A stretch of 64,000 nt of DNA from an uncultured Gammaproteobacteria bacterium (GCA_964524515.1 CAZGEA010000001.1:361522-425521), one strand, 5' to 3'; shown: positions 1,452-63,947, counted from the first letter of the stretch. Numbers and translations: made by a program. The notes: generated by a model not told the origin, from the letters alone.

Positions 1452-2801
1452 ATGAGGAAAATTCTGCCCAGCCTCATAGTGGTAGGTGCAATATCAGCCC
1501 TTGTGGTGACTGTCACAAATGCTTACTTCTCTGATCGCGAAACTTCATCAAACAATCTATTTCAAACTGGAAAAATCGATTTAAAAATTGACAATGAAAG
1601 CTATTACAATGGTGCAGTCTCTGCAAATACTTCTTGGGAAAAAGATGATTTACCTGGTCATTTGTTTTTCGATTTCAATGATGTAAAGCCATCTGATTGG
1701 GGTGAGGATACAATTTCATTACATGTTGATGATAATGAAGCCTGGGCATGTATGAAAACATCGCTTACTAAAAATATTGATAACACTTGCACTGAACCAG
1801 AAAAAATTGATGACCCAAATTGTTTAGAGGGAGAAAATGCCACAAACAGTGGAGAATTAGCAAACAATATTAATTTTATGTTTTGGATTGACGATGGAGA
1901 TAATGTACTTGAACAAGGTGAATTTGACAATAATATTATAGCTCAAGGTCCAGCTAGCCAAGTTCTAAACAGTAATATCATACTTGCAGATTCAAGTTTA
2001 AATCGTGTAGGTGCAGTTGGTGAAGGACTTTTTCCAAATATAACCTATTTTATAGCAAAAGCATGGTGCTTTGGTTCACTCTCACCTAATCCACTACCTG
2101 AAGGTCAAGGAGTAAATCCTACAATAAACTCAGGTATTTTATGTAACGGATCAAATCTAAATAATTCAACACAATCTGATATTTTAAATGCAGATATTGA
2201 GTTCACTGCATATCAACACAGAAACAATCCAAACTTTTTATGTTTCCCTTCAAGTCCAACTCCTACTCCTACTGCTACTGCAACACCAATAGCATGTGCC
2301 AATGTCTGGGCAGATACTGTAGTTAGCGCTAACCAAGGTACAAGAAAAAATGGTACAGCAGTGTTAGCCACCCGATCAAACCCAACTACAGCATTAGTAG
2401 CTCAAACTTTAGGAAATATCTACGATAGCCCAGTAACTGAAGGAACTTTTTATAGCTTAGGATTTAAACTAGCTACACCAAATGTTGGTGGAAGCATAGT
2501 TGTTTCATTTACCAATCCAATACTTAATGGCCCAGGAAATGATTTAAAAATATATGAAGTTACAGGTGGATCAATCAATTCTCCATATCCTGATGAATTA
2601 ATTAAAATCGAAGCAAGTCCTGATGGAATCACCTATACAACTCTTGCAGCTTCAGCAGCTCGTGATGCAACAGTTGATTTGGGGATACTAACTCAAGCCA
2701 AATTTGTGCGAATTACTGATGTTTCTCCACTTGCTCCATTTGAGTCAACCGCAGATGCCTATGATCTCGACGGAGTTCAAGCCCTTTGCGGTCAACTTTA
2801 A
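1452..2801 (+). CDS. Camelysin/TasA-family secreted protein with a SipW-cognate-class signal peptide
   Basis: The N-terminus (...VTNAYFSDRETSSNNLFQTGKIDLKID) matches the CalY/TasA pattern (AFFSDKE..NTFAAGTLDL). It has a Pro/Thr linker and a C-terminal domain. An SD-like sequence lies upstream. Confidence 0.75.
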   Translation: MRKILPSLIVVGAISALVVTVTNAYFSDRETSSNNLFQTGKIDLKIDNESYYNGAVSANTSWEKDDLPGHLFFDFNDVKPSDWGEDTISLHVDDNEAWACMKTSLTKNIDNTCTEPEKIDDPNCLEGENATNSGELANNINFMFWIDDGDNVLEQGEFDNNIIAQGPASQVLNSNIILADSSLNRVGAVGEGLFPNITYFIAKAWCFGSLSPNPLPEGQGVNPTINSGILCNGSNLNNSTQSDILNADIEFTAYQHRNNPNFLCFPSSPTPTPTATATPIACANVWADTVVSANQGTRKNGTAVLATRSNPTTALVAQTLGNIYDSPVTEGTFYSLGFKLATPNVGGSIVVSFTNPILNGPGNDLKIYEVTGGSINSPYPDELIKIEASPDGITYTTLAASAARDATVDLGILTQAKFVRITDVSPLAPFESTADAYDLDGVQALCGQL

Positions 2802-2833
2802 TAAATTTATTTTTTTGAAGGAGGTGATTATGA

Positions 2834-3760
2834 ATGAAAAGACTATTAACTAGTATTCTAACAATTGGTGTAATCGCATCTGTTGCAGTTGGCGCCACTC
2901 GTGCCTTCTTCTCAGATCGAGAAACTTCAACTGGAAACGTTTTATCAGCAGGTTCTATCGATCTAAAGGTTGATAGCACTGCTCACTATGCAGGTCTTGT
3001 GTGTAGTTTAGGAGGACTTTGGGTAGAAGACACAATTGGTGTATCCAATAATACTCGTCCAGAATTACTAAACACAGTATGTACTGGTACTTGGGAATCT
3101 AAAGATTTAACAAATGAAAAATTCTTTAATCTAACAGATATCAAACCAGGTGATATGGGAGAAAACACATTATCTTTAACAGTACAAGATAATGATGCTT
3201 GGGCATGTATTCAAATCAACAATTTACAAAACAACGAAAATACACTTGTTGATCCAGAAGCAGAAGCAGGAGATGTAACCAATGATCCAAACGGTGGAGA
3301 ATTAGCTCAAAACTTATACTTTACTGCATGGCTCGATCAGGGAACAACACCTGGTTGGCAAAATTCTGACAACGATCCAAATACACCTATAGATCCAACT
3401 GAAGGAGATAATATTTGGCAAGGCAATACAGCTGAACCATTATTATTCACCAATCAGCAAGGTCCAGCATCTGATGTATTAGGAGGGCAAACATACAAAT
3501 TGGCAGATTCAACAACTGGCTTCGGTCCATTAGTAGGTTTACAAACTAACTATATTGGATTAGCTTGGTGTGGAGGTCAGTTTGATGCAGTAGCAATGGG
3601 ATTAGGTAATTTAGTCTGTAATGGATCATTTATGGGTAATAACACTCAAACTGATAGCATTACAGCAGATTTATCAATCTATGTTGAACAAGCAAGAAAC
3701 AATCCAAATTTCACTTGTGCATCATTAGCAAGCCCAATTCCAGTTCCAACAGGAATATAA
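2834..3760 (+). CDS. Camelysin/TasA-family secreted protein (paralog)
   Basis: N-terminus is MKRLL...GATRAFFSDRETSTGNVLSAGSIDLKVD. There is a strong SD (gaaggaggtga) 7 nt upstream. It shares conserved blocks with the preceding gene (WACM/WACI, QGPAS.VL, RNNPNF.C). Confidence 0.8.
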   Translation: MKRLLTSILTIGVIASVAVGATRAFFSDRETSTGNVLSAGSIDLKVDSTAHYAGLVCSLGGLWVEDTIGVSNNTRPELLNTVCTGTWESKDLTNEKFFNLTDIKPGDMGENTLSLTVQDNDAWACIQINNLQNNENTLVDPEAEAGDVTNDPNGGELAQNLYFTAWLDQGTTPGWQNSDNDPNTPIDPTEGDNIWQGNTAEPLLFTNQQGPASDVLGGQTYKLADSTTGFGPLVGLQTNYIGLAWCGGQFDAVAMGLGNLVCNGSFMGNNTQTDSITADLSIYVEQARNNPNFTCASLASPIPVPTGI

Positions 3761-3773
3761 TTGGCAATTTTCT

Positions 3774-3840
3774 CTCCCGCTCATCGGGAGGGAAGCCCGG
3801 GGATATTTATAAATAGTTAAAATAAATATATCCGGGCTTC
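3774..3840 (+). promoter_or_regulatory. Two GC-rich stem-loops between the second TasA-like gene and sipW (CTCCCG/CGGGAG, then 9-bp GAAGCCCGG/CCGGGCTTC)
   Basis: Perfect inverted repeats read directly from the sequence. There is no trailing T-run, so this is not a canonical intrinsic terminator. It could be an attenuator or an RNA-stability element. Confidence 0.4.
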
Positions 3841-3845
3841 TAAAT

Positions 3846-4511
3846 ATGTTAAAACTTACTGTCTCATATAAAATTGCAAAAATAATTTTCGCATTCTATG
3901 GCCTAATTTTGGGCTTACTAATCTTTTCATTCTTAGCAAAAAATGGTTATTTAAATTCCTCTTATAAATTATTAATCGTATTGTCAGGTTCCATGGAGCC
4001 ACAAATAAAAACTGGAAGTTTGGTAATAACTAAGTCAGAAAAAAATTACAAAATACAAGATGTTATAGCTTTTGAATCTTCAAATAATGATCTTGTAACT
4101 CACAGAATTGAAGGAATAACCAATTCCGGTTTTGTAACAAAAGGAGATGCAAACAACACCACTGATCCAGGTGAAATTTTAAATAACCAAGTAAAAGGAA
4201 AAGTAATTTTTACTATTCCATATTTAGGTCGCGTTGCAAACATCTCAAAAAATCCAAAAGGTTTCATTGCTGTAGTTATTATTCCAGCAACAATAATAGT
4301 TTATGAAGAATTAGTAAAAATAAAAAAAGAAATAGCAAATTTTATAAAAACCAAAAAATTAAAAAATAATAAATCAAACAGCATGCCAAATTTTGCAATA
4401 TTAGTTCCATTCATAGCTCTTGCATTCATGTACACAATAGCAACCAATGCTTATTATTCAGACTCAGAAAAAAGCACGCAAAATTCATTTACAGCATCAA
4501 ACAATTTTTAA
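3846..4511 (+). CDS. sipW: Signal peptidase I, SipW/archaeal type (S26B)
   Basis: N-terminal TM. Catalytic-Ser box LSGSMEP. HRIEG and KGDAN boxes typical of SipW-type peptidases. C-terminal TM. It lies within the TasA-like operon. Confidence 0.8.
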   Translation: MLKLTVSYKIAKIIFAFYGLILGLLIFSFLAKNGYLNSSYKLLIVLSGSMEPQIKTGSLVITKSEKNYKIQDVIAFESSNNDLVTHRIEGITNSGFVTKGDANNTTDPGEILNNQVKGKVIFTIPYLGRVANISKNPKGFIAVVIIPATIIVYEELVKIKKEIANFIKTKKLKNNKSNSMPNFAILVPFIALAFMYTIATNAYYSDSEKSTQNSFTASNNF

Positions 4512-4512
4512 A

Positions 4513-5478
4513 ATGTATAAGAAAAAAATATTAATACTATTACTAATTTTAGTTCCACTTTTATCATATCTTGGAGTGACAATTGCAAATGCACAAAACA
4601 CATTTGCATCGGGAGCTATAACCATATCATTTAACAATTCCCCTATTTCAGGCCCAATTTTTAGTGTTGAAAATATGCTACCAGGTGATTGTGTGGAAAA
4701 AAATATTACAATTCAAAATAGCACTAATTCACAAAAAGAAATAAAAATAAAATCAGAAAATATCACACAATCTGGAAATTTAGCGACAGTTCTAAATTTT
4801 GAAATTAAAAAAAATAATTCAACAATTATTTATTCAACTAACAATTTAAATAATTTTTTCAATCTCACATCAACAACACTTACAAACATTCCAACAAACA
4901 CAATCGAATCATTTACTTTTAAAATTTGTTTTGATCCAAATGCAGATAACAGTTATCAAAATAAATTCACAAAATTTGATTTAATATTTATAACTGATGG
5001 AAATAACCAAACATCAATCCCCGCCCAATGCCTTGAAAAAGGAAGAAAAATAGAAAATATAATAATAGGAACTGAAAAAAATGATAATATCCGTGGAACT
5101 TCCAAAAAAGATTACATTAATGGGTTTAGTGGCGATGACAAAATTACAGGAACTTCAGATGATGATTGTATTTGGGGCGGCGAAGGAAATGACGAATTAG
5201 ATGGAGGGTCAGGAGAAGACTACATTTGGGGAGAGGAAGGAAACGACATAATTGATGGTAGAAGTGGAAACGATATAATCTATTCAGGAAATGGAGACGA
5301 CACTATTGATGCTGGAGCTGGAGAAGATAACGTTTGGAGCGAAAATGGTAACGACAGTATCAAAGCAGGTCCTGGAAATGACAAAGTAGATTCAGGTGAT
5401 GACTCAGATTCAATTAACGGAAATACAGGAAAAGACAAATGTACAAACGGAGAAACAATTACAAATTGTGAAGAGTAA
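4513..5478 (+). CDS. Secreted camelysin/TasA-like N-domain fused to RTX-type (hemolysin-type) Ca-binding repeats
   Basis: Start moved to ATG 4513 (MYKKKILILLL... signal). The NAQNTFASGAITIS motif resembles the mature TasA/CalY N-terminus. The C-terminus carries about 10 GxGxDxI nonapeptide repeats (GGEGNDELDGGSGEDYIWG...). Confidence 0.65.
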   Translation: MYKKKILILLLILVPLLSYLGVTIANAQNTFASGAITISFNNSPISGPIFSVENMLPGDCVEKNITIQNSTNSQKEIKIKSENITQSGNLATVLNFEIKKNNSTIIYSTNNLNNFFNLTSTTLTNIPTNTIESFTFKICFDPNADNSYQNKFTKFDLIFITDGNNQTSIPAQCLEKGRKIENIIIGTEKNDNIRGTSKKDYINGFSGDDKITGTSDDDCIWGGEGNDELDGGSGEDYIWGEEGNDIIDGRSGNDIIYSGNGDDTIDAGAGEDNVWSENGNDSIKAGPGNDKVDSGDDSDSINGNTGKDKCTNGETITNCEE

Positions 5479-5481
5479 TAA

Positions 5482-5868
5482 TTAACTAATTCCCAAATAT
5501 CCTTTAATTTTAGTTACAATTTCATGAGGTGTTAGGTTAGCTTTCAATAAATACTCTTTTGCTCCAGCCTCTAATACTTTCTTTTCTTCCTCTGGTTGGC
5601 TTAAATTTGTCAAAAATAACGTTGGAACATTAACATTTAATTCCTTGAGTTTAAAAAATAAATCAATTCCAGATAATTTTGGCATCATTACATCCATTAC
5701 AATAAAATCAATTTTATTCTCCTGAGCTTTTTTTAATCCTTCCATTCCATCTTGAGCAACAATCAATTCAAATCCATCTAAACTAAATTTAGTCGAATAC
5801 ATTTTAATCAAAAGAGGATCATCTTCAACTAAAAGTATTATTTTTTTATTATTTTGATTATCTTGCAT
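5482..5868 (-). CDS. Single-domain response regulator (CheY-like receiver)
   Basis: LLVEDDPLL, VMDVMMP.LSGIDL and conserved Lys (EYLLK) receiver motifs. Confidence 0.8.
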   Translation of the reverse strand: MQDNQNNKKIILLVEDDPLLIKMYSTKFSLDGFELIVAQDGMEGLKKAQENKIDFIVMDVMMPKLSGIDLFFKLKELNVNVPTLFLTNLSQPEEEKKVLEAGAKEYLLKANLTPHEIVTKIKGYLGIS

Positions 5869-5880
5869 AGAAATAACATA

Positions 5881-7239
5881 TTACCCCAAAACTATTGGGA
5901 GTTCAAACCAAAAAATCGAACCTTTCCCAGTTTCACTTTCAAAACCAATCACCCCACCAAACTTTTCAACTAACAATTTAGAAATATACAAACCAAGCCC
6001 TGTTCCCATAACTTTCCCTTCAGATGATTCTGCTCTAAAAAACTTCTGAAACAACTTTGCTTTATCAGCCTCATTCATTCCAGGTCCAGTATCAGATATT
6101 TCAACCCGAACAGTCTTAGGATTTGTATTAAAAAGTTTAACGTTCACAGATCCTTGGTCAGTATATTTAATTGCATTACTAATCAAGTTTGAAACTACTT
6201 CATATATTCTATCTCGGTCAACATATGCCAAATCAGAAACATTCTCGGTCTGACTATAATTTAATGCCAATTTCTTATCCTGCGCTTGAATCTTATATTC
6301 ATTCACAACTGTTGAACAAACATTAGCTAAATTTACATTCCCCATTTCAAAAGTTAATCTTCCTTCTTCAATTCGCGAAATATTAAGCATGTTATTAACT
6401 AATCTAATCAACCGATCATTACCTGATAAAGCCTCTCCCACAAAATCCTTCATAGATACTGTCATCTCCCCTGCATCGCCCTCTGAAATCATTGATAAAT
6501 AGCCTTTAATAGCTGTCATTGGAGCTCGTAGCTCATGCGCTGCAACACTCAAAAATTCATCTTTGCGCTTATCAAGTTCTTTTAGTTTTTTATTAGCATT
6601 TTGCAAATCCTGATACAAAGTGACACGATTAATTGCAAGTGCAAACACATTTCCAATTTCAGATAGTACTCGCATCTCAAACGATGAAAATTCGCCTTCC
6701 TTTCTCTGCGAAAAAAGTGAATATACTCCTATTACTTCAGTACCAAACAAAATTGGATAAGCAAAAATTGCATTAATCTTTGAATTCACAGCAATACCAA
6801 TTGCTTCATTCCAGTGCTCTTTTGGAATCCAAGTTCCATATACATCACTCACATTTAACGAAGTCACCATTTTTTTAGATTGAGCAGCTTTTAAAAATAA
6901 ATTCTCGTATGAATTGTCAGGAATAACCAGGCTCTCAATAGGCAAATTTATAAGCTTAAAAATTTCCTGATCAAAAGCAAATTTCGTAGTTGCAACGACT
7001 TGAAGTTGATCCAAATTATGATTCATTAAAGCAACCATTCCAGATTCAAATTTCAAATCAGACGTAATCACATCAATAAATTTTTGAGATACTTCTTTTT
7101 GTTCATAACTACCAACTACTATTTGATACAACTTCTGCAAAACAGTCATTACTTGATTTGAAACAACTAATTCTAAATTTTTCTTATATAATTCCTTTGC
7201 TACAGATTCATACTGAGTTGAAGAACTTTGAGGATTCAT
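5881..7239 (-). CDS. Sensor histidine kinase with N-terminal GAF-like domain (cytoplasmic)
   Basis: HisKA H-box AAHELRAPMTAIKGY. HATPase_c N, G1 and G2 boxes (NLISNAIKYT, DTGPGM, GTGLGL). No TM segments. Confidence 0.8.
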   Translation of the reverse strand: MNPQSSSTQYESVAKELYKKNLELVVSNQVMTVLQKLYQIVVGSYEQKEVSQKFIDVITSDLKFESGMVALMNHNLDQLQVVATTKFAFDQEIFKLINLPIESLVIPDNSYENLFLKAAQSKKMVTSLNVSDVYGTWIPKEHWNEAIGIAVNSKINAIFAYPILFGTEVIGVYSLFSQRKEGEFSSFEMRVLSEIGNVFALAINRVTLYQDLQNANKKLKELDKRKDEFLSVAAHELRAPMTAIKGYLSMISEGDAGEMTVSMKDFVGEALSGNDRLIRLVNNMLNISRIEEGRLTFEMGNVNLANVCSTVVNEYKIQAQDKKLALNYSQTENVSDLAYVDRDRIYEVVSNLISNAIKYTDQGSVNVKLFNTNPKTVRVEISDTGPGMNEADKAKLFQKFFRAESSEGKVMGTGLGLYISKLLVEKFGGVIGFESETGKGSIFWFELPIVLG

Positions 7240-12012: not shown

Positions 12013-13431
12013 TCATTTTAATTTAATTGCTCCAGAATTTGATGCACTATTTGTCAAATACAAAAAATTCATTTGAAAATCCAAATTTGTTACTTTTTCA
12101 AAACTAGAAACTGGGATTCTAACCAAACTTATATTTGCATCATTTTCCAAATCATCTCTAAATTTTGCCAGGGAACTTCTCGATCCAGATATTCCTTCAA
12201 GCAACACTATTCCTGTTTCCATATTAATATCATATGACAAAATACTTACATCATTTGGTTTTAAATTTGTAATTTTATTAATCACATCTTGAGGATAAAA
12301 AATCGAAGATGAAATTTTAACTGTCATCTGAGATAGTTTATTGATCGTTGTAATTTGTGTCACTATGTCAGCAGATAATGCTGATTTCTGCCTTTCTTCA
12401 AGTGATTTTTCAGCTATATATTTTTGCCCTGCAATCGTTGAAAAAACTATAATCGAACTAAAAAATGTTATCCAAACAACAAATGAAAAAATCATCATCA
12501 ATGACCAAGTCTGAAAACTCATTCTCTTGCTCTCATATTTACGCACCCACTCAGGAGGAAGCAAATTAATAGAATATGGATCAAGGGGCTCTCTGGCTTC
12601 CCTGTATTGCATCGAACGAGAAAGCAAAAATTGCTCTGTTAATTTAGTAACTCCAAATTTTGGCAAGAAAAAATAAGAAATTGGATATTTTACACTTGTT
12701 TTAATCTCATTTATAAATTCATCATCCAAATTTCCACAACTGATTATGCTTTGAAATTCAAGAGAAGTAAAATGATTTAAAATTAAAGATGCAGTACGAG
12801 AAATCATTTTAGAATCATTTCCTGAAATTGTTGTACTAGTTTTAACAGATCCACTATCAGTCAAAACCAAAAGTGTTTCTTCGGGTTTTCTATAAATAAG
12901 CAAGTTCGCGCCTTTTGCGCTTTCAATTAATCTCAATAGAGAAAGTGATGGAGTCTCCACTAAAATTGGCATTAATCCTGCAATATCACAAGATTGTACA
13001 TATGATGACAAGATATCTTTCAAAACAGAAACAGTCAAAATATTAAATTCATTTTTGTTTTCAGTTGTCCCAATTATTTTCCAATCCATAACATTCAGTG
13101 TCTTTTGAGGCAAAAATTCATTTGTTGCCCAAACAACAGCCTCTTGAAGTTCATTCAAATTAAGATGGGATGGTAATTGAATTGTTTTAGTAAAAGTTGC
13201 AAACTCAGGTATGATAATTCCAACTGCCCTCTCCCCAATCTTATATTTTTTCCAAAGCTGGCTCAAAAAAACAGCCATTTTTGAAACATCAGCAACTTTT
13301 GATTGGGAAATAAGATTTTCAGGAATTAACTCAGTGGCTTGTACCAAAACTTTACCTTTATCAGGCGAGAGCAGAAAAATCTCAATACTCTTAGGGCTAA
13401 ACACTAATGAAACGAAACGTTTTTTGTACAT
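12013..13431 (-). CDS. PilM-PilN fusion (actin-like ATPase fold fused to a TM-anchored PilN-like domain)
   Basis: N-terminal about 300 aa PilM-like region. Central TM (WSLMMIFSFVVWITFFSSIIVF). C-terminal periplasmic domain. Confidence 0.6.
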   Translation of the reverse strand: MYKKRFVSLVFSPKSIEIFLLSPDKGKVLVQATELIPENLISQSKVADVSKMAVFLSQLWKKYKIGERAVGIIIPEFATFTKTIQLPSHLNLNELQEAVVWATNEFLPQKTLNVMDWKIIGTTENKNEFNILTVSVLKDILSSYVQSCDIAGLMPILVETPSLSLLRLIESAKGANLLIYRKPEETLLVLTDSGSVKTSTTISGNDSKMISRTASLILNHFTSLEFQSIISCGNLDDEFINEIKTSVKYPISYFFLPKFGVTKLTEQFLLSRSMQYREAREPLDPYSINLLPPEWVRKYESKRMSFQTWSLMMIFSFVVWITFFSSIIVFSTIAGQKYIAEKSLEERQKSALSADIVTQITTINKLSQMTVKISSSIFYPQDVINKITNLKPNDVSILSYDINMETGIVLLEGISGSRSSLAKFRDDLENDANISLVRIPVSSFEKVTNLDFQMNFLYLTNSASNSGAIKLK

Positions 13432-13460
13432 TGGCAGGTTATAACTATTATACTAAATAA

Positions 13461-14807
13461 ATGAAAATAGATCTGCCCAACAAAAACAAAAAAGGTCAGG
13501 TTCTAATAGGCCTTACTGTCTCAATTGCCGTGCTCGCTATTTTGACAGAAGTAGTAATTTCCCTAGTCTACACTTCATATCAAATTCTCGCATTTACACA
13601 AGCCAGGACTAACGCAAAGTTTATTGCACTAAACGAAATAGAGATAATTAAAAACTTACCTTACAATTCAATTGGAACAGTTGGAGGAATTCCAACAGGT
13701 GTTTTAAGCCAATCAAAAACGACAATCAGAAACGGATTAACTTATACAATTTCAACAAGTGTAATCTATATTGACGATCAATTTGACTCAATTGCACCAA
13801 CTGATCTATTGCCAACTGATTACAAAAGAGCTCGTGTCGAAGTCAGCTGGCCAGGATTAGCACAATCCAAAACAAACCCAGTAGTTTTAGTTACTGACAT
13901 TGCGCCAAAAGGAGTTGAAACAACAAATGGGGGAGGAACATTATCAATTCTAGTCTTTGATTCAAGTGGATTACCATTATCACAAGCCAATGTACACATT
14001 GTGGCAAGTACAGTAAACCCAGCTGTTGATTTAAATTTAAAAACTGCAACAGATGGACGAGTAATACTTCCAGGTGCTCCAGCCTGCAATGGATGTTACC
14101 AAATTACAGTAACCAAATCAGGTTACTCAACTGATCGCACGTATTCAAGCTCAGAAGTTACAAATCCAAATAAACCACACCAAACAATAATCGCAAGCAA
14201 TCTGACAGAAGTCAGTTTCTCAATTGATCTTTTATCATCAATAAATGTCACTTCCACTTATGGTAGTCAAAATAATTTCGCCGTTTACCCAAATAGAGGC
14301 TTTGCCCTTCAAGGTACAAAACAAATTGGCACAGATTCCCTAAATAATCCTGTATACAAATACAAAAACGGATTCCAAACTGATAGTCTTGGAAATTTAA
14401 CAATTTCAAACCTAGAATGGGATACCTATCAATTCACATCCTCTGATTCAGCAACTCTTGATTTGGAAGCAGTTAATCCAACAATCCCATTAATAATGTA
14501 CCCAAATACTCAAACACAATTTACGTTCGCCCAAACAAGTCATACTGCAAACTCTCTACGCGTTCAATTCTTAGGTTCTGGGGGTTCACCAATTGCCTCA
14601 GTTGCAGCAACACTTTCTCAATCATCAATTCCAATTGCCACACAATCAAGTGGATTATCAACAGATCCAAATTTTGGACAAGTATACTTTCCATCTCTAT
14701 CATCTGGAATCTATACTATTGATGCAACAGCATCTGGCTATCTTCCATATTCTGCTGTTGCAACTGTATCAGGCCAAACAGTAGAAAATATAAATTTAAC
14801 CCAATGA
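13461..14807 (+). CDS. Large pilus-associated protein with pilin-like N-terminal hydrophobic segment and carboxypeptidase-regulatory-like beta domains
   Basis: The N-terminal KGQVLIGLTVSIAVLAIL helix lacks the canonical E+5. The Ig-like/CarbopepD_reg-like middle region suggests a minor pilin or tip-associated protein. Confidence 0.45.
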   Translation: MKIDLPNKNKKGQVLIGLTVSIAVLAILTEVVISLVYTSYQILAFTQARTNAKFIALNEIEIIKNLPYNSIGTVGGIPTGVLSQSKTTIRNGLTYTISTSVIYIDDQFDSIAPTDLLPTDYKRARVEVSWPGLAQSKTNPVVLVTDIAPKGVETTNGGGTLSILVFDSSGLPLSQANVHIVASTVNPAVDLNLKTATDGRVILPGAPACNGCYQITVTKSGYSTDRTYSSSEVTNPNKPHQTIIASNLTEVSFSIDLLSSINVTSTYGSQNNFAVYPNRGFALQGTKQIGTDSLNNPVYKYKNGFQTDSLGNLTISNLEWDTYQFTSSDSATLDLEAVNPTIPLIMYPNTQTQFTFAQTSHTANSLRVQFLGSGGSPIASVAATLSQSSIPIATQSSGLSTDPNFGQVYFPSLSSGIYTIDATASGYLPYSAVATVSGQTVENINLTQ

Positions 14808-15409
14808 AAAAAAACAAAGGATTTACACTAGTTGAAGTAGCCATAGGTGGCGCTATGATGGTTGCAATTGGAGGTGCGATTGCAGGCCTTCAATACATTA
14901 TGATTCAAAACCAACTCTCAATTTTTGGTGGTACAACCAAAGTTGAATATGCAAATTCAACTGCCCGTGAACTAGTAAGAGAAATACGAACCGCAAGAGA
15001 CGGGGACAATGGGGCATATGTCATCGAAGCTGCATCAGCAAATTCAATCACTTTCTATACTGATTCTGATTTTGATGGCAAAGCTGAAAAAATTAGATAT
15101 TTTTTAAGTGGAACTGATCTTAAAAAAGGAATCATAAAACCTGTTGGCTACCCAGTAACTTATCCAACCAATACTGAAATAATAAAAACCACTGCAGAAA
15201 ATGTAAGAAACTCTTCCACCCCAATCTTTTATTATTTCAATAGCAGTTTCCCAACAGATACAATAAATAATCCATTAAATTCACCAATTGATATCTCAAA
15301 AATTGCAATGATTCAAATATATTTAAGAATAAATCCAAAAAACGATCCCAAATCAGATTACATTGTCGATTCAGCAGCTGAAATTAGAACAATCAAAAAC
15401 AATCTTTAA
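14804..15409 (+). CDS. Minor pilin with prepilin-type N-terminal motif
   Basis: KG|FTLVEVAIGGAMMVAIGGAIA. Overlaps neighbours in ATGA/TAATG fashion (operonic). Confidence 0.75.
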   Translation: MKKNKGFTLVEVAIGGAMMVAIGGAIAGLQYIMIQNQLSIFGGTTKVEYANSTARELVREIRTARDGDNGAYVIEAASANSITFYTDSDFDGKAEKIRYFLSGTDLKKGIIKPVGYPVTYPTNTEIIKTTAENVRNSSTPIFYYFNSSFPTDTINNPLNSPIDISKIAMIQIYLRINPKNDPKSDYIVDSAAEIRTIKNNL

Positions 15410-16782
15410 TGTTAAAAAATAAAAGAGGATCAATCACACCAGCCTTAATGATTATTGTTGGTGCGTTTTCAATTGTGATTTATGGTTTATTGTTTGTACT
15501 CACTTCTCAGCTTGATTTTTCAAATCGCCAAATAGCAGGGGAGGAAGCTTTATCAATTGCCGAAGCAGGAATTAATTATTACAGATGGCATTTAGCTCAT
15601 GCCCCAACTGATTTCAAAGATGGCCAAACGTCACTTGGCCCATATGAGCACGACTACACTGATCCCCAAGGAACAAAAATAGGAAAATTCAGCCTAAACA
15701 TTATTGCTCCAATAAATGGATCAGCAATTGTTACAATCGAATCAACGGGATGGAGCCTAAGATTTCCCACAGTTAAAAGAAAAATTAAAGCACAATACGG
15801 CAAAGCCTCACTTGCCAGATATTCATTTTTACAAAATGCTTCAGCTTGGTATGGATCAGGTATTACAGTTAACGGTGACATACATTCAAATACAGGTATA
15901 AGAATGGACGGGATAAATACAGCCAAAGTAACAAGTGCTGTTGCAACTTATACATGTGGAACAGAAACAGGTTGCTCACCTGCTACCAATAGGCCAGGAG
16001 TCTGGGGAGCAGGACCAAACAGTTATCTTTGGCAATTCCCAATCCCTTCAGTTGATTTCAATGCAATTTCTTTTGATTTTCAAAATATGAAAACAGCAGC
16101 ACAATCATCAGGTTTATATTTAGGTCCATCTGGGCAACGTGGCTATCATTTAATATTTTCTTCAAACGGAACATTTCAAGTACGCCGAGTCACCAACACA
16201 TCAAACTATACTTCATACACACCAGAAGATGGTTGTCTTAACAGAGCTGAAAATATAAGTTCAGAAACAAATATTGGAACATACAATGTTTCAAATGTTC
16301 CTATATTTTTTGCAGAAGATCAGTTGTGGGTTGAAGGTGTTGTAAAAGGAAAAATATCAGTAGTGTCAGCACGTTTTCCAATTGATAATTACTCAATGGA
16401 TATTTGGGTTCCAAATAATCTAAATTATGTTGCGTATGATCACACAAATAATTTAGGCTTAATTGCTCAAGGAGATATTTATTTTGGTAGAAATATCCCC
16501 ACAAACTTTAGAATTGATGGCGCACTTATGGCTCAAAAAGGAAAAATAATAAGACATGGTTATATTTCAGGATGCGGATCAGGAAGTTGGTCAGTTAAAA
16601 ATTCACTAACAATAAACGGTAGCTTAATCTCATACAACAAATCATATTGGAATTTTGGTTCACCTCCTTCATCAGGATTCACAACAAGAAATATAAACTA
16701 CGATGCAGATTTACTTTTTATGCCGCCTCCATATTTTCCAACATCAGGGGAATACGAATTCATAAGCTGGGCTGAAGAATAA
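15409..16782 (+). CDS. PilX/PilY-like large minor pilin or pilus-tip protein
   Basis: N-terminal TM helix (RGSITPALMIIVGAFSIVIYGLLFVL) followed by an about 420-aa domain. Translationally coupled to the upstream minor pilin. Confidence 0.5.
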   Translation: MLKNKRGSITPALMIIVGAFSIVIYGLLFVLTSQLDFSNRQIAGEEALSIAEAGINYYRWHLAHAPTDFKDGQTSLGPYEHDYTDPQGTKIGKFSLNIIAPINGSAIVTIESTGWSLRFPTVKRKIKAQYGKASLARYSFLQNASAWYGSGITVNGDIHSNTGIRMDGINTAKVTSAVATYTCGTETGCSPATNRPGVWGAGPNSYLWQFPIPSVDFNAISFDFQNMKTAAQSSGLYLGPSGQRGYHLIFSSNGTFQVRRVTNTSNYTSYTPEDGCLNRAENISSETNIGTYNVSNVPIFFAEDQLWVEGVVKGKISVVSARFPIDNYSMDIWVPNNLNYVAYDHTNNLGLIAQGDIYFGRNIPTNFRIDGALMAQKGKIIRHGYISGCGSGSWSVKNSLTINGSLISYNKSYWNFGSPPSSGFTTRNINYDADLLFMPPPYFPTSGEYEFISWAEE

Positions 16783-16783
16783 A

Positions 16784-17470
16784 CTATTGATTCTGACTTA
16801 CACAAGATCCATCTCCAATTATTGTTTTGTATTGGCTTTTTTGATTCCACTCCGTGCAATCACGAGCTTCAATTACACCAGGTGGATAGCTGGATGTTGG
16901 AGTTGCCGTTGGGCTATTTCCACCACCAACAAATGCATCACCGCAATATGATAAAAGCCAATGTTTACACCATGATGGAGCAGATGGGGGAAAAGTTGGC
17001 CCAGGTGTGGCACTTCCTCCACCGCCTCCGCCTCCACTACCGCCACCTCCACCAGTTTCCCCTCCACCTCCGCCTCCACCAACTCCTGGAGTGGCAGTAG
17101 CAAAATATTGACCTACAGGCTCACCACCAGTTTGAAAAACTTGCCCTAACAATTCATCACTATTTGTAATTCCAGATTTACCTACTCCATCGTCAATCAA
17201 ATAACCATCAAAATTTCCAGAATTTGTTTTTAAATATTCCAAAAAAGCATTTACTTTATCTGGAGTCCAAAGTTCAGTATGTCCATCTGGAAATTTAACC
17301 AAACCATTTCTAGAAAATATTATTGTGTTCCCTGCTTTATCAGTTATTCTGATTTCATCATTTACTAAATTCGAATTATTTATACCGGTTTTTGGAGAAA
17401 AAACAAAAACTATCAAAGCCAAAAATCCAACAATAAAACCAACTATTAAATATTTTGAATTTATTTTCAT
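16784..17470 (-). CDS. Secreted Gly-rich, Cys-containing protein, function unknown
   Basis: Signal/TM at the N-terminus. A poly-Gly tract (GGGGGGETGGGGGSGGGGGGG). Six Cys in the C-terminal 70 aa. Confidence 0.4.
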   Translation of the reverse strand: MKINSKYLIVGFIVGFLALIVFVFSPKTGINNSNLVNDEIRITDKAGNTIIFSRNGLVKFPDGHTELWTPDKVNAFLEYLKTNSGNFDGYLIDDGVGKSGITNSDELLGQVFQTGGEPVGQYFATATPGVGGGGGGGETGGGGGSGGGGGGGSATPGPTFPPSAPSWCKHWLLSYCGDAFVGGGNSPTATPTSSYPPGVIEARDCTEWNQKSQYKTIIGDGSCVSQNQ

Positions 17471-18681
17471 TTTTTACCCACCTGATCCTGTAATCCACCA
17501 ATAATTCCATAAATTGGAGCGATCATAATAATAACCATTCCACCAACAACCACACCAATTAAAAGCATCAAAACTGGCTCCAATAAACTCGTAGCCCTTT
17601 TTATTGAATATTCAACTTCATTTTCATAAAAAACAGCCATTTCCTCCAATATTTCATCCAAAGTTCCAGTTTTCTCTCCAGCTTTAATTGTTTGAATCAT
17701 AATAGCTGGAAAAAGTTTCACTTCTTTTGATAAAACAGATGAAAGTGATTCTCCTTTTGAAACTCCTTCACTAAATCTATTTGCTGCTGCACGCACCTTT
17801 TGATCAGATAATCCCTGGGCAGACACATCAAGCGCATTAGTAATTGCAACTCCGCTTCGAAGTAATGTTGATAAAGTTCTAGCAAATCGTGCAATATCGA
17901 TTTGATGAATAACAGTTGAAACATAAGGTAATTTTAAAAAATAATTCAAAAAAATCATTCTAGTTTTTCTAATATAAAAAAGCATAAACAGGAAAAATCC
18001 TGAAAAAACAGCAGCAGCAATTGTAAGTGCTGTATTGTGTCCAATAAAATCTCCTACCGTCAAAACAATTTTAGTAGGCAAAGGCAGGGGAGTATCTAAT
18101 TTCAAAAATACACTCGAAATTCGAGGTAATACAAACAACATCATGATTGCAGCGTTTCCAAGCATTGCCAAAATAATAACTGCTGGATACATCATGGCTC
18201 CTCTGATTTTTTGAGTTAAATCATAACTTGCAGTTAATTGTTTTGTTAAATATTCAAAAGATTTCTGGAGCGTTCCCGATTCCTCCCCCACTTTTATCAT
18301 TGTCAAAAAAATTGGGTCAAAATCATTTTTATATTGTGATAATACTGAAGTTAAATTTTTCCCTTTTTGAGTTTGAAATGACAAATCAGCCAAAATCTTT
18401 TTCATTTTCCCCTTTTTAGTCTCAGCACGCATAATATCAAGCGCCTCAGGAAGTGATAATCCAGATCGAATCATTGTGGCCATAAACCTACAAAAAAGTA
18501 CTTTTTCAGACAAACTCACATGCCCCGAATCCCCTCCTCCACCATCAGATGACTTAAGTGAAAAAATAGTAATTCCAGTAGATTTTAACGCTGCAAACGC
18601 TTCATCTTTATTTGTTGCTTGAATTGTATCCTCAACCAATTCACCTTTTAAATTTGTTCCCTTGTAAATAAAAATTGCCAT
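17467..18681 (-). CDS. pilC: Type IV pilus platform protein PilC (GspF family)
   Basis: Two GspF-like repeats and three TM segments. Adjacent to and coupled with PilB. Confidence 0.85.
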   Translation of the reverse strand: MAIFIYKGTNLKGELVEDTIQATNKDEAFAALKSTGITIFSLKSSDGGGGDSGHVSLSEKVLFCRFMATMIRSGLSLPEALDIMRAETKKGKMKKILADLSFQTQKGKNLTSVLSQYKNDFDPIFLTMIKVGEESGTLQKSFEYLTKQLTASYDLTQKIRGAMMYPAVIILAMLGNAAIMMLFVLPRISSVFLKLDTPLPLPTKIVLTVGDFIGHNTALTIAAAVFSGFFLFMLFYIRKTRMIFLNYFLKLPYVSTVIHQIDIARFARTLSTLLRSGVAITNALDVSAQGLSDQKVRAAANRFSEGVSKGESLSSVLSKEVKLFPAIMIQTIKAGEKTGTLDEILEEMAVFYENEVEYSIKRATSLLEPVLMLLIGVVVGGMVIIMIAPIYGIIGGLQDQVGKK

Positions 18682-18682
18682 A

Positions 18683-20359
18683 TTAATCCTCCATTACAGC
18701 TCTCAATACTTCTTCAATTGTTGTAAGCCCAGATGCAACTTTATCCAATCCATCTTGCATCATTGTAATCATACCCTCTAAAACTGCCTGTTTTTTAATT
18801 AAATCACTTGAAGATCGAGCAGTAATCAACTTTCTTATCGGTTCACTCAGTGCCAAAACTTCCACAACAGAAAGCCGGCCTGCATATCCTGTGTTATGAC
18901 ACCTATCACATCCCTTACCTTTATAAAATTTTTGATTTGAAACATCATGCCCTTCTTCAGTTAATCTATGCATAATACCTTCACTTGGAATATAAGGGGC
19001 CAAACAATTCTGACAAGATCTTCGCACCAATCTTTGCGCAACAATTGCATTCGTAGTAGAAGCTACCAAATAACCTTCAACTCCCATATCAAGTAAACGC
19101 GGAATTGCTCCAGATGCATCATTTGTATGAAGTGTTGATAACACCAAATGTCCAGTTAATGCTGAATTAACTGCAATCTGTGCAGTTTCTTTGTCTCTAA
19201 TTTCTCCAACCATCATAATATTTGGATCATGACGCAAAAGTGCTCTCAATCCTGCAGCAAAATCCATTCCAGCTTTTTGATTAACCTGAATTTGAGTTAC
19301 ACGCCCAATTCCATACTCAATAGGATCTTCAATCGTACAAATTTTAACTTTTACTGTATTTAAAATATTCAAAACTGAATATAAAGTAGTAGTTTTACCG
19401 CTTCCTGTTGGCCCAGTCACTAAAAGCATTCCATGAGGTTTATAAATATTCTCGCGAATTAGCTCCAAGTTATGTCCTGTCACTCCGAGCTCTTCAAGCG
19501 ATAGTGGACGCGTTGATTCAGCCAAAAGCCTTGCAACTACATTCTCACCATAAAACCCTGGAATTACAGATATACGAAGTGCAATGACATCATCATCAAT
19601 TTTAAATTTATAACGTCCATCTTGAGGAATTCTATGTTCATCAATTTTCAAATTCGAAACGATTTTAATACGCGCTATGAGTGCCGTTTCAATGCCCCGT
19701 GGAAGTTTAATAATATCCCTCAATACTCCATCAATTCTAAATCTTATAATTACATCATATTGAGCAGTCTCAATATGAACATCAGATGCACGCTCGGCTG
19801 CTGCATATTCTAAAATAGTATCAAAAACTTTAATTATCGGAAGCATTTCTGCAGCCTTTGTTGGATCTTCAACAACACCCGCTTTTTTTAGATTCTCTTC
19901 AATTACCCGATCAAATTCAGCAGAAATATTTTTCTTATATTGACCAAGTGCACGCCGTATATCCTCATCAGTCGCATAATAAGGTAAAACGTTCTGCCCT
20001 GTATGACGCCTCGCAAATTCCAAGGCTTCAAAATCAGCAGGATCTTCCATTGCAAGCTTAATCCCCTCCTGAGTCTTGTCAAAAGAAACCATTCTATAAC
20101 TTCTAGCCAACTTTTCAGGAACTAAATTCAAAACATCTTGAGGAATAACAACTTTACCAACATTTGCAAACGGAGCATGCAAATAATCTGCGATCAATTT
20201 TCCAAGCGCATCCTCACTAATTAATCCACGAAAAATTAAAACATCGTCAATCTCACGTCCCAAATCATTTGCCGATTGAAGACTATCATCAAAGTCAGCT
20301 TCTTTGACATATCCAGCATGAACAAGAATTTGTTTTAATTCGGCAGGAGCTATTTTCAT
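18683..20359 (-). CDS. pilB: Type IV pilus assembly ATPase PilB (GspE family)
   Basis: Walker A GPTGSGKTT. Asp and His boxes. Tetracysteine CQNC...CDRC zinc motif. N-terminal GspII_E-like domain. Confidence 0.9.
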   Translation of the reverse strand: MKIAPAELKQILVHAGYVKEADFDDSLQSANDLGREIDDVLIFRGLISEDALGKLIADYLHAPFANVGKVVIPQDVLNLVPEKLARSYRMVSFDKTQEGIKLAMEDPADFEALEFARRHTGQNVLPYYATDEDIRRALGQYKKNISAEFDRVIEENLKKAGVVEDPTKAAEMLPIIKVFDTILEYAAAERASDVHIETAQYDVIIRFRIDGVLRDIIKLPRGIETALIARIKIVSNLKIDEHRIPQDGRYKFKIDDDVIALRISVIPGFYGENVVARLLAESTRPLSLEELGVTGHNLELIRENIYKPHGMLLVTGPTGSGKTTTLYSVLNILNTVKVKICTIEDPIEYGIGRVTQIQVNQKAGMDFAAGLRALLRHDPNIMMVGEIRDKETAQIAVNSALTGHLVLSTLHTNDASGAIPRLLDMGVEGYLVASTTNAIVAQRLVRRSCQNCLAPYIPSEGIMHRLTEEGHDVSNQKFYKGKGCDRCHNTGYAGRLSVVEVLALSEPIRKLITARSSSDLIKKQAVLEGMITMMQDGLDKVASGLTTIEEVLRAVMED

Positions 20360-20392: not shown

Positions 20393-20899
20393 TTATAAAG
20401 CTCTTATGCCAGATGCTACAAATCTGAGGCTATCACGCGGTCCATCGCAAGTATATAAAGTTATTATTTCATCCTGACTTGCTGCAATTACACTTTTATC
20501 TGATGGCTTGACACTCTTAGTGTTTAAAATCACATATTTAAACATTTGATTATTTGAATAAACATAAACCAAATCACCACTAACCAATTCAGGAAGCCTT
20601 GCAAAAAAATCAACCTTATTATGAGCAAACAAAACCTGATTTCCATTCTTTCCAGGAAGTCCAGATTCCGCTCCCCAAGAAACATAATCATCATGAACTT
20701 CCCAATAACCATCAACTATTTGAGCAATCTTAACTGGTAAATCAATATCAATCTTTGGAATCACGACTCTTATTGGATAATTAGTTTCCGCTTGAACTGA
20801 AGTCTCAACAGCTTTTACCTTTGTTGTTTCAGTAATTTTCAAAAAAAACAAAGAAGACAAAAAAATAATAATAGTCAAAAAAAATATTATTTTCCTCAT
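20393..20899 (-). CDS. Sortase-family transpeptidase
   Basis: N-terminal TM. Conserved His (VLFAHN), catalytic Cys in the TLYTCDG (TLxTC) box, and a downstream Arg (RFVASG). Confidence 0.75.
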   Translation of the reverse strand: MRKIIFFLTIIIFLSSLFFLKITETTKVKAVETSVQAETNYPIRVVIPKIDIDLPVKIAQIVDGYWEVHDDYVSWGAESGLPGKNGNQVLFAHNKVDFFARLPELVSGDLVYVYSNNQMFKYVILNTKSVKPSDKSVIAASQDEIITLYTCDGPRDSLRFVASGIRAL

Positions 20900-20901
20900 T
20901 T

Positions 20902-22005
20902 TTATCTCTCTTTTGCTTCAAAAAATAATTGCGATGACCCTAAAAACACAATTGAAGCTCCAAACAAAATACCTGTTAACAAATTTTGGTTAATTCCTGT
21001 AAAAGATAAACCTAAAACTGATGGATTATTAGAAGAATTGCTTACATTTGATGTACCGCCTCTAGAATCGTTATTTGAATTAGAATTAGAATTTTGCTGC
21101 CCAGGATCACTCACACCAGGATCCAAAGGATCACCCGGGTCAGAGACATGATAGCAGTCACAATTTACATGAACAAATGAACTATTTGCTTCATTCTCCA
21201 CTTCAACATTTACAAAAATATCTCCTGTTTTAATTATAGAATCCCCCATTAAACCATCAATCTCATTAAAACTAGTATTCAAATCCAAATTAAGATTATT
21301 TTCTATTTTTAAATTATTATTTACTGTAATCTTATTTTTTTGATTTGTACTAACATTAATACTGTTAACACTATTGGCGCCATTACCACTCACACTTAAA
21401 CTAAGACTGTTGTTTGAATTTGCTGGCATAATAATCGCAGATTGATTTACAGATTTATTTGAAATGTTAACTTTTGCACTTATATTTCCTGTGGTGATTA
21501 AAGCAGACCCCTGATTACCATTTACTTTATTTAATCCAGTATTTATATTGCCACTTATATTAGTTGTTATTAATGCATTATTATTTTGGTTTAAATTATT
21601 TTGATTAGAACTATCAATTTTTACATTTTGCTGTGATCCTTCGCCATTTCCAATAACTTTAACATCCTGACCATTACTACATTTACAATCATTTTCAGTT
21701 ATTTGATTTGAATTTAAAGAATTAGATACCTCAACCTGTGTTTTTGCATTCCCAGTTTCAATACTACTATCTCCTTGGCTATTTGTAACAAAATTATTGC
21801 CTGTATTTGAATTTACATTTACATTATTTTCAACTTTTGCCTCATTACTTTGGGTAACATTTGAAGTTTGTTCATTTATAGTTGTTACTTGAGAACTAGA
21901 ATTCTCACCATTACCAGATACTTGAATCTCCATCGCATAAATAGCTAATGGAAAATTAAAAAATAAAAATATTGAAGCTACTAAACTAAATACTTTGCGT
22001 CCCAT
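20902..22005 (-). CDS. Secreted Asn/Ser-rich repeat protein with C-terminal hydrophobic anchor and charged tail (possible sortase substrate)
   Basis: Signal peptide. Repeat modules containing ..TGNAKT..V.N..NSN....CKC / ..VNCDC.. The C-terminus is ...GLSFTGINQNLLTGILFGASIVFLGSSQLFFEAKER. Confidence 0.6.
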   Translation of the reverse strand: MGRKVFSLVASIFLFFNFPLAIYAMEIQVSGNGENSSSQVTTINEQTSNVTQSNEAKVENNVNVNSNTGNNFVTNSQGDSSIETGNAKTQVEVSNSLNSNQITENDCKCSNGQDVKVIGNGEGSQQNVKIDSSNQNNLNQNNNALITTNISGNINTGLNKVNGNQGSALITTGNISAKVNISNKSVNQSAIIMPANSNNSLSLSVSGNGANSVNSINVSTNQKNKITVNNNLKIENNLNLDLNTSFNEIDGLMGDSIIKTGDIFVNVEVENEANSSFVHVNCDCYHVSDPGDPLDPGVSDPGQQNSNSNSNNDSRGGTSNVSNSSNNPSVLGLSFTGINQNLLTGILFGASIVFLGSSQLFFEAKER

Positions 22006-28124: not shown

Positions 28125-28128
28125 AATT

Positions 28129-28689
28129 TTATCTTCCAGGTCCTACCCCTCCACCACAGTTATTCCCAGTACAAGGTCCAGGTGTCGGACAAAAAAATGT
28201 TGTAACAGTTGGCGTGGGCTGTGCACCAGATTGATTTCCCAAAAATTGCAATTTTCTCTTTGATACAACCATTCTCAATCTATCATTTTGAGTTGAAGAT
28301 GAAGCAAGTTCAAAATCAATTGTTATTTCATAGCTTGGATAATCAGATTCAGCTGAATAATCTCTTACTTCAAAATCAGTAACCAAAACCTCCATTGCAG
28401 TTAATGATTCTCCATTCCTTGTTAATTTTTGATTCTCAAGTTTATAAATAACATTTGAATCCAAATCCAAAACTCCACCTGACCATTTAACATCATTAGC
28501 CCAACGGACGTTATTCGACATATCCTGCATAATATCGTTTTTAGTCTGCTCCAAAACTTGAGTTCTTCTAGTTCTGGTATCAGCAGAATAAAGAAGCAAA
28601 AATATCGAACTAGTTGTTAAAAATATCAATATAGAAACAGAAATTCCAATCAACAATTCAATGAGGGTGAAACCTTGTTTTTTATTCAT
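28129..28689 (-). CDS. Pseudopilin / minor pilin (prepilin-type N-terminus)
   Basis: KQG|FTLIELLIGISVSILIFL. Confidence 0.7.
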   Translation of the reverse strand: MNKKQGFTLIELLIGISVSILIFLTTSSIFLLLYSADTRTRRTQVLEQTKNDIMQDMSNNVRWANDVKWSGGVLDLDSNVIYKLENQKLTRNGESLTAMEVLVTDFEVRDYSAESDYPSYEITIDFELASSSTQNDRLRMVVSKRKLQFLGNQSGAQPTPTVTTFFCPTPGPCTGNNCGGGVGPGR

Positions 28690-63795: not shown

Positions 63796-63947
63796 TTGTA
63801 AAATTATATATTATTTAATTAATCTTATTCAAAATTTACAAAAATCCAATGGAAACAAAAAAAGCGAGTGACCCCATTGGAATTCGCCATGCAAAACAAT
63901 CTCCACAATTAGCATTATCGAACCCAAGGAAAACGAGCGAAGCGAGT

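Follow-up and report, generated by a model that had tools for sequence, protein, structure and literature searches.

TasA-Type Fibers and the Window Locus

TasA-like fibers are the main protein scaffold of many biofilms. To our knowledge, how such fibers are initiated is poorly known in most organisms, and even for Bacillus and Clostridium, little is known of how they stop growing and attach to the cell. We describe here four consecutive plus-strand genes, P1, P2, sipW, and P4 (positions 1452-5478), in a 64,000-nt stretch of DNA ("the window") from an assembly titled as an uncultured Gammaproteobacteria bacterium (GCA_964524515.1 CAZGEA010000001.1:361522-425521). They very probably make up a TasA-type fiber cassette.

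In the best-described system, tapA-sipW-tasA of Bacillus subtilis (fiber structure 8AUR), a dedicated endoplasmic reticulum (ER)-type signal peptidase is encoded together with its substrates, as it is here. TasA protomers are linked by a donor strand, mature residues 28-38, whose deletion impairs fibers (PMC9674648); the N-terminus of TapA resembles this strand, and TapA has been proposed as the giver of the first one (PMC9674648). A strain secreting only TapA residues 44-57 still makes biofilm (PMC10151520). The cassette shares with TasA the form of the cognate signal (a final Ala, then (A/Y/F)F.D), a mature part that provides the donor strand, and the beta-sandwich subunit fold; with TapA, it would share the principle of a donor-only accessory that starts the polymer, of which only about 14 N-terminal residues are needed.

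Two further systems are similar in outline. The haloarchaeal Tafi locus, with which we claim no sequence relationship, likewise encodes a TasA-superfamily donor-strand fiber along with its own peptidase, a separate initiator, and an acceptor-type terminator: TafA/E are proposed to be pilins, TafC the initiator or tip, TafF the terminator or anchor, and TafD the peptidase (PMC11821415, PMC12337348). The sipW-bsaA-bsaB-bsaC operon of Clostridium perfringens combines SipW with several TasA-like paralogs, often with a sortase adjacent; its secretion is linked to type IV pili (T4P), and heteropolymers, with an LPXTG-bearing paralog as anchor, have been suggested. Initiators (TapA, AbpB, TafC) and a terminator (TafF) have thus been proposed before in other systems, and TasA homologs in Patescibacteria have been noted in Pfam surveys (PMC9245690). 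A limited literature search found no account of SipW in the candidate phyla radiation (CPR), of SipW fusions, of a SipW that includes a donor strand and a signal like that of its substrates, of TasA-like domains fused to RTX repeats, or of a donor-less TasA-like family.

We think it likely that the window cassette is a four-gene donor-strand-exchange fiber kit, with P1 and P2 as shaft subunits, SipW as their peptidase, an initiator fused to SipW, and P4 as an acceptor-only terminator; taken by themselves, the initiator role of the SipW tail and the terminator role of P4 are somewhat favored. P1 and P2 would cross the membrane by way of Sec and be cleaved after Ala24 by SipW, exposing an N-terminal donor strand (Y/F-F-S-D-R-E-T-S..N) that would complete the beta-sandwich of the next subunit. 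SipW would bring its own substrate, its third transmembrane segment (TM3) serving as signal peptide with a cleavage site between TNA and YYSDSEKSTQNSFTASNNF, and cleavage in cis or in trans would free a 19-residue peptide consisting only of a donor strand. This 19-mer could occupy the groove of the subunit that comes first, leaving the latter's own strand available, as TapA does for TasA with its 14 N-terminal residues. P4, predicted to be cut between ANA and Q, would begin where a donor strand would have ended; able to accept a strand but not to give one, it would form the polymer end, bearing a calcium-stiffened RTX beta-roll. The full set of parts would leave no unpaired groove or strand. 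Domain identities, motifs, folds, gene order, and the presence or absence of the donor strand are shown directly below; polymerization, cleavage of the SipW tail, the two end roles, and polarity are inferred from them. Since P4 has no anchor and the window initiator no adhesin domain, the product may be a released matrix or tether element, or may be held by way of the RTX roll.

If assembled in this way, the fiber would differ from those above in several respects. Compared with Bacillus, its initiator is fused in-frame to the peptidase C-terminus and is only 19 residues long, and in relatives it bears a lamin-tail domain (LTD) where TapA has an Ig domain; the subunit exists as two paralogs, of which one bears a CBM32-like domain; a donor-less RTX terminal subunit with no known Bacillus equivalent is added; and beyond the N-terminus there is next to no sequence identity to TasA. 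Compared with Tafi, the host is bacterial (CPR) and exports the proteins through Sec instead of Tat; an RTX beta-roll takes the place of the transmembrane helix at the end of the terminator, and where Tafi has a two-domain tip protein, the initiator consists of nothing but a strand joined to the peptidase. Compared with the bsa operon, there is no equivalent of the VWA protein BsaC.

A preliminary description of the window, made from its sequence alone, had proposed a fiber operon in this region, with two SipW-cognate paralogs followed by a SipW-type peptidase and a TasA-like/RTX fusion, together suggesting a dedicated extracellular fiber or attachment organelle. All four open reading frames (ORFs) are present as described, and the fiber reading is supported by the results below. 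Two features central to our interpretation had been missed, namely that SipW itself ends in a cognate signal and donor strand, and that P4 lacks a donor strand.

Related Cassettes

GTDB species genomes and metagenome contigs were scanned, yielding 56 loci with a full-length P4-type gene. Hidden Markov models (HMMs) were built for the three families, as was a donor-motif HMM trained only on the subunit N-termini of relatives; the latter was made because the curated model for SipW-cognate signals, TIGR04088, is too short for SipW tails (over 65 SipW homologs, it found only 2 tails at E≤0.01).

The P4-type gene is immediately preceded by sipW in 51 of the 56 loci, and four of the remaining five have less than 900 nt of upstream sequence; sipW in turn usually follows one to four donor-bearing TasA-like genes. 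Between the SipW catalytic domain and P4, at least 44 of the 51 loci have a donor module detected by HMM, fused in-frame to SipW in 27 and encoded by a separate gene of 160-260 amino acids (aa) in 17. Among the seven loci that the donor HMM missed, L006, L048, and L053 have a clear motif by eye, and L014, L049, and L036 a divergent one. The module consists of a signal or transmembrane segment, then [A/S][F/Y/L]F.D.[E/A].S..N.F.AA, then a PT-rich linker. After the linker comes usually an LTD, sometimes other domains, and in L019, L021, and P0218 a complete TasA-like domain. Where it is a separate secreted protein (L004, L012, L016, and others), it has a signal, donor strand, PT linker, and LTD.

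The donor HMM is specific. Over the 6367 six-frame ORFs of all loci, all 115 matches of at least 10 bits fall in subunits, SipW tails, or separate donor genes, while among the 300 ORFs of the window, 5 bits are exceeded only by P2 (52.7), P1 (39.7), and the tail of SipW (20.9). This specificity and the recurrent gene order together argue that the cassette is not a chance assemblage.

Peptidase-substrate polyproteins appear to be a recurring design. SipW is fused in-frame to an entire TasA-like domain in L019 (1797-3488), L021 (5817-7004), and P0218; to RTX repeats after the donor motif in L063 (6461-7591); and to a donor-less domain with a transmembrane helix in P0421.

The Donor-Less Protein P4

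The realistic start of P4 is the ATG at 4513, one base after the SipW stop codon, within an ORF at 4447-5478. The protein has a signal peptide of the ordinary AxA type (aa 1-27, 4513-4593, ending ANA), a beta-sandwich (aa 28 to ~165, 4594-5007), and 14 RTX nonapeptides (aa ~182-317, 5056-5463) with a Cys-capped C-terminus. HemolysinCabind (PF00353) matches at 111.5 bits, and PF12389 (Peptidase_M73, the TasA/camelysin family) at 24.7 bits (gathering cutoff 22.5). An AlphaFold2 (AF2) model has a mean pLDDT of 89.5, exceeding 90 in the beta-roll, which has 15 strands at 9-residue spacing and best resembles adhesin and antifreeze domains in structure. The preliminary description, which had suggested such a structure prediction, was right about a TasA-like N-terminus joined to an RTX block, although it counted about 10 nonapeptides. 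P4 is not a SipW-cognate protein, having an ordinary signal and no FFSDxETS donor strand. Nor is the fusion, a combination that the preliminary description did not recognize, an isolated case: the RTX-fusion family is present in about 48 species-level genomes of Microgenomates-group CPR bacteria.

P4 shares with RTX adhesins (MpAFP region IV, 3P4G; CyaA block V) a GGxGxD beta-roll with a C-terminal cap, for which extracellular calcium-dependent folding is expected. It differs in its signal, which is N-terminal and of Sec type where theirs is C-terminal and belongs to a type I secretion system (T1SS); a T1SS is absent, and bacteria of the host lineage have no outer membrane. The roll is also joined to a TasA-like acceptor domain, and P4 scores 68 bits on the RTX-toxin family NF033943, against a cutoff of 1000, the RTX repeat module alone being common to both.

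The absence of an FFSDxETS donor strand is probably the key to the role of P4. Its mature N-terminus, QNTFASGAITISF, matches TasA 37-47 (TFASGTLDLS), the stretch that follows the TasA donor strand. When the P4 and P1 families are aligned profile to profile (hhalign, 86% probability, E 4.7e-6), the mature start of P4 falls opposite P1 residues ~33-35, and the end of the P4 signal peptide lies where the P1 donor strand sits. TIGR04088 has no match in P4 or in any of 51 P4-family members, and the donor-HMM motif is absent from the P4-type proteins of all 56 loci. P4 is thus an acceptor domain without a donor strand of its own, as expected of a terminator.

The same holds well beyond the cassette. 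An exhaustive search with P4 aa 28-175 as query, with sequences clustered at 50% identity, gave 869 clusters at E≤1e-3 (83 at E≤1e-10), of which the best 150 were inspected. None of these 150 representatives has the donor motif, and in nearly all of them the domain begins at residue ~20-60, directly after the signal peptide. They differ in their C-terminal ends: RTX repeats in 44, a transmembrane helix with a basic tail in 46, LPXTG with a transmembrane helix in 7, LTD-like domains in 7, and other or short ends in 46. TafF, proposed to take the last donor strand of Tafi, has a C-terminal transmembrane helix like that of the 46. One member with a transmembrane end (L088) belongs to a cassette that also encodes SipW, two donor subunits, and one more donor protein, and one ending in LPKTG (L090) is followed by a sortase. 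These ends on donor-less relatives suggest that the acceptor-only end of the fiber is probably the cell-proximal or anchoring one, a polarity that may also apply to the window cassette. In one protein of 3678 aa (P0362), 32 stretches match the donor-less domain in tandem; it would be a covalently concatenated version of the fold.

P4 might instead stand outside the fiber, as an independent secreted calcium-binding adhesin or surface-layer-like protein that completes its own sandwich and is merely co-transcribed. Its ordinary signal peptide, the likeness of its beta-roll to adhesin and antifreeze domains, and the folding back, at low confidence, of its modeled N-terminal strands would all fit this. 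We nevertheless consider it unlikely: the gene lies directly downstream of SipW and the donor module in 51 of 56 loci, a whole domain family lacks the donor strand yet retains the acceptor sandwich, and anchored relatives occur in the same kind of cassette.

SipW and Its C-Terminal Extension

SipW belongs to the ER/archaeal-type signal peptidases I (TIGR02228, 103.9 bits, cutoff 51.85), as do all 65 aligned homologs. The catalytic motifs SM.P (Ser), THR (His), and GDAN..D (Asp) are retained, and Ser49 (3990-3992), His86 (4101-4103), Arg87, Asp101, Asn103, and Asp107 are invariant in the 65-sequence alignment; the preliminary identification as a SipW-type peptidase, for which the Ser/His dyad had been named as the point to check, therefore stands. 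It is the same type of enzyme as, but outside, the Bacillus ortholog group, and has in addition TM3 and a tail.

Hydropathy indicates three hydrophobic segments, TM1 (aa 8-34), TM2 (aa 137-157), and TM3 (aa ~179-202), with a Lys-rich loop of net charge +5 (aa 154-180) between the last two. By the positive-inside rule, the N-terminus would be inside and the catalytic domain outside, with TM2 leading back in, the Lys-rich loop inside, and TM3 leading out. The loop and TM3 together thus read as the putative n- and h-regions of a signal peptide. TM3 ends in TNA, followed by YYSDSEKSTQNSFTASNNF (aa 203-221, 4452-4508) and the stop codon, with no globular domain. TIGR04088 matches aa 199-218 at 21.8 bits (cutoff 19), and the donor HMM matches the tail at 20.9 bits, with no more than 8 residues following. 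Like the N-terminus of TapA, then, the tail is a donor-strand-like segment of SipW-cognate type without an acceptor sandwich; homology to the TapA Ig domain is neither present in it nor claimed.

A frameshift or misassembly was rejected as the origin of the tail: at 27 independent loci SipW continues in-frame into the donor module, and the window tail recurs unchanged in the Logan assembly copy of the cassette (L001) and in a relative of 98% identity that differs by five substitutions, none of them outside the catalytic domain.

Since TapA residues 44-57 alone suffice in B. subtilis, a 19-residue donor-strand peptide derived from SipW is plausible as a minimal initiator, in effect a TapA-like protein cut down to this length. 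Fused tails always have Ala or Ser at -1 and Ala, Ser, or Thr at -3, as in true substrates, and this conservation favors cleavage. Were the tail left uncleaved, the donor strand would be tethered to the membrane by TM3, and the peptidase would be both anchor and nucleation site of the fiber. The in-frame fusion is kept in 27 of 51 loci, and BsaA oligomers of C. perfringens are membrane-anchored by an unknown component (PMC11580942), both of which would suit such an arrangement. It is improbable, however, given the small residues at -1 and -3, and also because the strand would lie flush with the membrane, with no spacer to reach a subunit groove; because in 17 loci the module is secreted on its own, behind an ordinary signal peptide; and because the transmembrane and LPXTG anchors of donor-less relatives sit at the opposite end of the fiber.

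A second alternative, which we find somewhat more doubtful still, is that the 19-residue tail is a non-functional remnant of a donor-LTD fusion whose domain was lost in a reduced genome. Most relatives have 69-330 residues (LTD or other domains) after the motif, and the window tail is the shortest, with 4 residues after the HMM match. But the motif still scores 20.9-21.8 bits and retains its -1 and -3 residues; several independent lineages (L002, L047, L072, L022, P0150, P0172) also have short tails, of 19-34 residues; a 14-residue TapA peptide is enough in B. subtilis; and the cassette has no other initiator gene. A minimal but functional initiator remains our preferred interpretation of the tail.

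Proposed Subunits P1 and P2

P1 and P2 are paralogs (35% identity, E 7e-51). P1 has a signal peptide at aa 1-24 (1452-1523), a predicted donor strand from Y25 to N35 (1524-1556), and a jelly-roll core to about aa 265, followed by a PT linker and a discoidin/CBM32-like domain of F5-8C fold (aa ~280-449, 2289-2798) with conserved Cys282 and Cys446. With this lectin-like domain on P1, the shaft would be multivalently adhesive. In homologs, the C-terminal domain is replaced by VWA, SpaA-like (PF19403), or F5/8C domains; such swaps indicate that the fiber subunits carry exchangeable adhesive modules. P2 has its signal at aa 1-24 (2834-2905) and donor strand from F25 to N35 (2906-2938), without a lectin-like domain. 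The beta-sandwich/jelly-roll fold is like that of the TasA fiber protomer.

The preliminary description had expected TIGR04088 or PF12389 to match all three non-peptidase proteins, and this was partly so. TIGR04088 matches P1 (37.3 bits) and P2 (21.9 bits), along with 32 of 46 P1-family members, confirming that these two paralogs have SipW-cognate signals, but does not match P4; PF12389 matches P2 (25.6 bits) and P4, with P1 (21.0 bits) just below cutoff. Its matches in all three are confined to the N-terminal ~35-60 residues.

That P1 and P2 are instead monomeric secreted proteins, either lectins, as the lectin-like domain of P1 might suggest, or camelysin-type proteases, as the family name Peptidase_M73 and the preliminary label "camelysin" imply, is very unlikely: there is no HExxH or other metalloprotease motif in the cassette protein sequences, the match to the model extends over its N-terminal part only, the assignment of camelysin as a peptidase is itself held to be a likely misidentification (PMC11580942), the conserved motif at the N-terminus serves TasA as its structural donor strand, and this segment of P1 (aa 21-41) is disordered in the monomer model, as a donor strand should be.

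In public data, P1 is called as a 440-aa protein (P0241; L001 3212-4534) starting nine codons inside the signal peptide; the 449-aa ORF (start MRKILPSL, window 1452-1478) agrees with the N-termini of homologs. N35, K79 (in a KPxD motif), and E85 are invariant in the P1-family alignment, recalling the Asn-Lys-Glu isopeptide lock of BsaA. Position L56 of P4 has Leu at the site of the P1-family Lys, and most P4 proteins have LPGD instead of KPGD. We do not claim a BsaA-type intermolecular lock, as the invariant P1-family Asn is at mature position 11 rather than 8 as in BsaA, and because of the LPGD of most P4 proteins.

Evidence Against the Proposed Assembly

Several observations weigh against the interpretation as a capped TasA-type fiber. 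In fold, P1 matches the TasA fiber (8AUR) modestly (TMt 0.37). In sequence, P1 and P2 resemble TasA over no more than the N-terminal ~50 residues, and neither P2 nor a profile of 46 P1-family sequences found TasA among PDB sequences, so membership in the TasA superfamily depends on the N-terminal motif and HMM matches together with the fold. SipW scores 105.9 bits on NF046067, the Bacillus SipW equivalog, against a cutoff of 190. The LTD of most relatives is absent from the window SipW tail, which could accordingly be a decaying remnant; in L002, L047, L072, and L022, 19-34 residues follow the motif. P4 has neither a transmembrane helix nor LPXTG, and hence no TafF-like C-terminal anchor that would mark the end facing the cell. 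Finally, its mature N-terminus (TFASGAITISF) is modeled as strands of low confidence (pLDDT 47-70), and might complement its own sandwich permanently.

Implications

Patescibacteria are episymbionts whose host-contact machinery is largely unknown, and the cassette is a concrete candidate for a non-pilus attachment structure in this group. It supplies three testable parts: a putative minimal initiator peptide coupled to the peptidase, a family without the donor strand that would be expected to cap or anchor fibers, and lectin-decorated shaft subunits. The parts may serve for engineered protein fibers of controlled length. More tentatively, and we would not call this the probable outcome, Microgenomates might build a polar, fully capped TasA-type fiber whose length and ends are genetically specified, with SipW as a self-processing polyprotein releasing the initiator at the site of subunit export, and with the donor-less family (869 clusters with RTX, transmembrane, or LPXTG ends) as a general terminator or anchor of TasA-superfamily fibers. 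If true, this reading would explain how fibers of the TasA and BsaA type end and attach.

Host Lineage

The closest homologs of all four genes are from Patescibacteria/CPR metagenomes, mostly of the Microgenomates group (Woese-, Levy-, Davies-, Gottesman-, Curtiss-, and Woykebacteria). The host is a Patescibacteria bacterium with a tiny genome, and this type of cassette is confined to Microgenomates-group CPR bacteria. The G+C content of the cassette region, about 30-37%, is the same as that of the remainder of the window, and the exact cassette proteins are also found on an NCBI contig and in the Logan assembly. Many loci with typical CPR gene content (e.g., L008-L011, L017, L025-L033) are labeled "uncultured Gammaproteobacteria/Pseudomonadales bacterium," and one (L021) "Nanoarchaeia archaeon"; these titles of metagenome-assembled genome records look like placeholder or wrong taxonomy.

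Gene Layout and Neighboring Genes

Table 1. Features of the fiber cassette, in window coordinates.
Feature	Position	Strand	Basis
P1, TasA-like fiber subunit, 449 aa	1452-2801	+	ORF; HMM and fold evidence
P2, TasA-like fiber subunit, 308 aa, P1 paralog	2834-3760	+	ORF; TIGR04088 21.9, PF12389 25.6, donor HMM 52.7 bits
Hairpin pair, P2-sipW intergenic	3774-3841	+	RNA fold
SipW signal peptidase, whole ORF, 221 aa	3846-4511	+	TIGR02228
SipW catalytic part	3846-4382	+	TIGR02228; invariant residues; hydropathy and charge
SipW in-frame C-terminal extension	4383-4511	+	TIGR04088 and donor HMM
P4, donor-less TasA-like domain with RTX beta-roll, 321 aa	4513-5478	+	PF12389; HemolysinCabind

Directly upstream of the cassette, on the same strand, is a gene for a secreted polysaccharide deacetylase with an extra N-terminal domain of ~190 aa (117-1367); a deacetylase flanks the cassette in 2 of the 56 loci, L004 among them. 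On the other side, a convergent two-component pair on the minus strand (5482-7239), made up of a 128-aa response regulator that has no output domain and a 452-aa histidine kinase, meets the end of P4; in 5 of the 56 loci, a response regulator of this sort lies close to the cassette.

The preliminary description had linked the fiber to neighboring T4P and sortase-anchored adhesin genes. T4P genes and a sortase are in the window, all on the minus strand, and they fared differently in comparison. The T4P set (12013-20359 and 26784-29234) includes genes for a PilM-like protein (12013-13431), PilC (T2SSF, 17467-18681), PilB (T2SSE, 18683-20359), two N-methyl pilins (28129-29234), and a VWA-domain protein. 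PilB/PilC are within 7 kb of the cassette in only 3 of the 56 related loci, and a functional T4P link as a conserved feature, of the kind known in C. perfringens, was rejected on this ground.

A sortase is within 7 kb in at least 24 of the 56 loci. In the window, the sortase (168 aa, 20393-20899) is preceded by proteins of 367 and 755 aa without Pfam matches, the set spanning 20393-24253; sets of a sortase with proteins of ~400 and ~750 aa likewise flank the cassette in L003 and L004, suggesting that the trio belongs to a distinct sortase-assembled surface structure that often accompanies the cassette. There is no sorting signal in P1, P2, P4, or SipW.

Rfam and tRNA scans of the window gave nothing relevant to the cassette; ARAGORN found no complete tRNA in the 64 kb, and a partial one lies at the window end (63947-64000, minus strand, RF00005, 31.9 bits).

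Within the cassette itself, the two hairpins lie between the P2 stop and sipW start codons. The fold of 3755-3850 has a predicted energy of -34.8 kcal/mol (z -4.5), and none of 200 shuffled controls was as stable; a single terminator-like site, at 3784-3800, falls inside the hairpin region. The hairpins could possibly act as a partial terminator or attenuator, or as an mRNA stabilizer, setting the ratio of subunits to accessory proteins, with the subunits higher.

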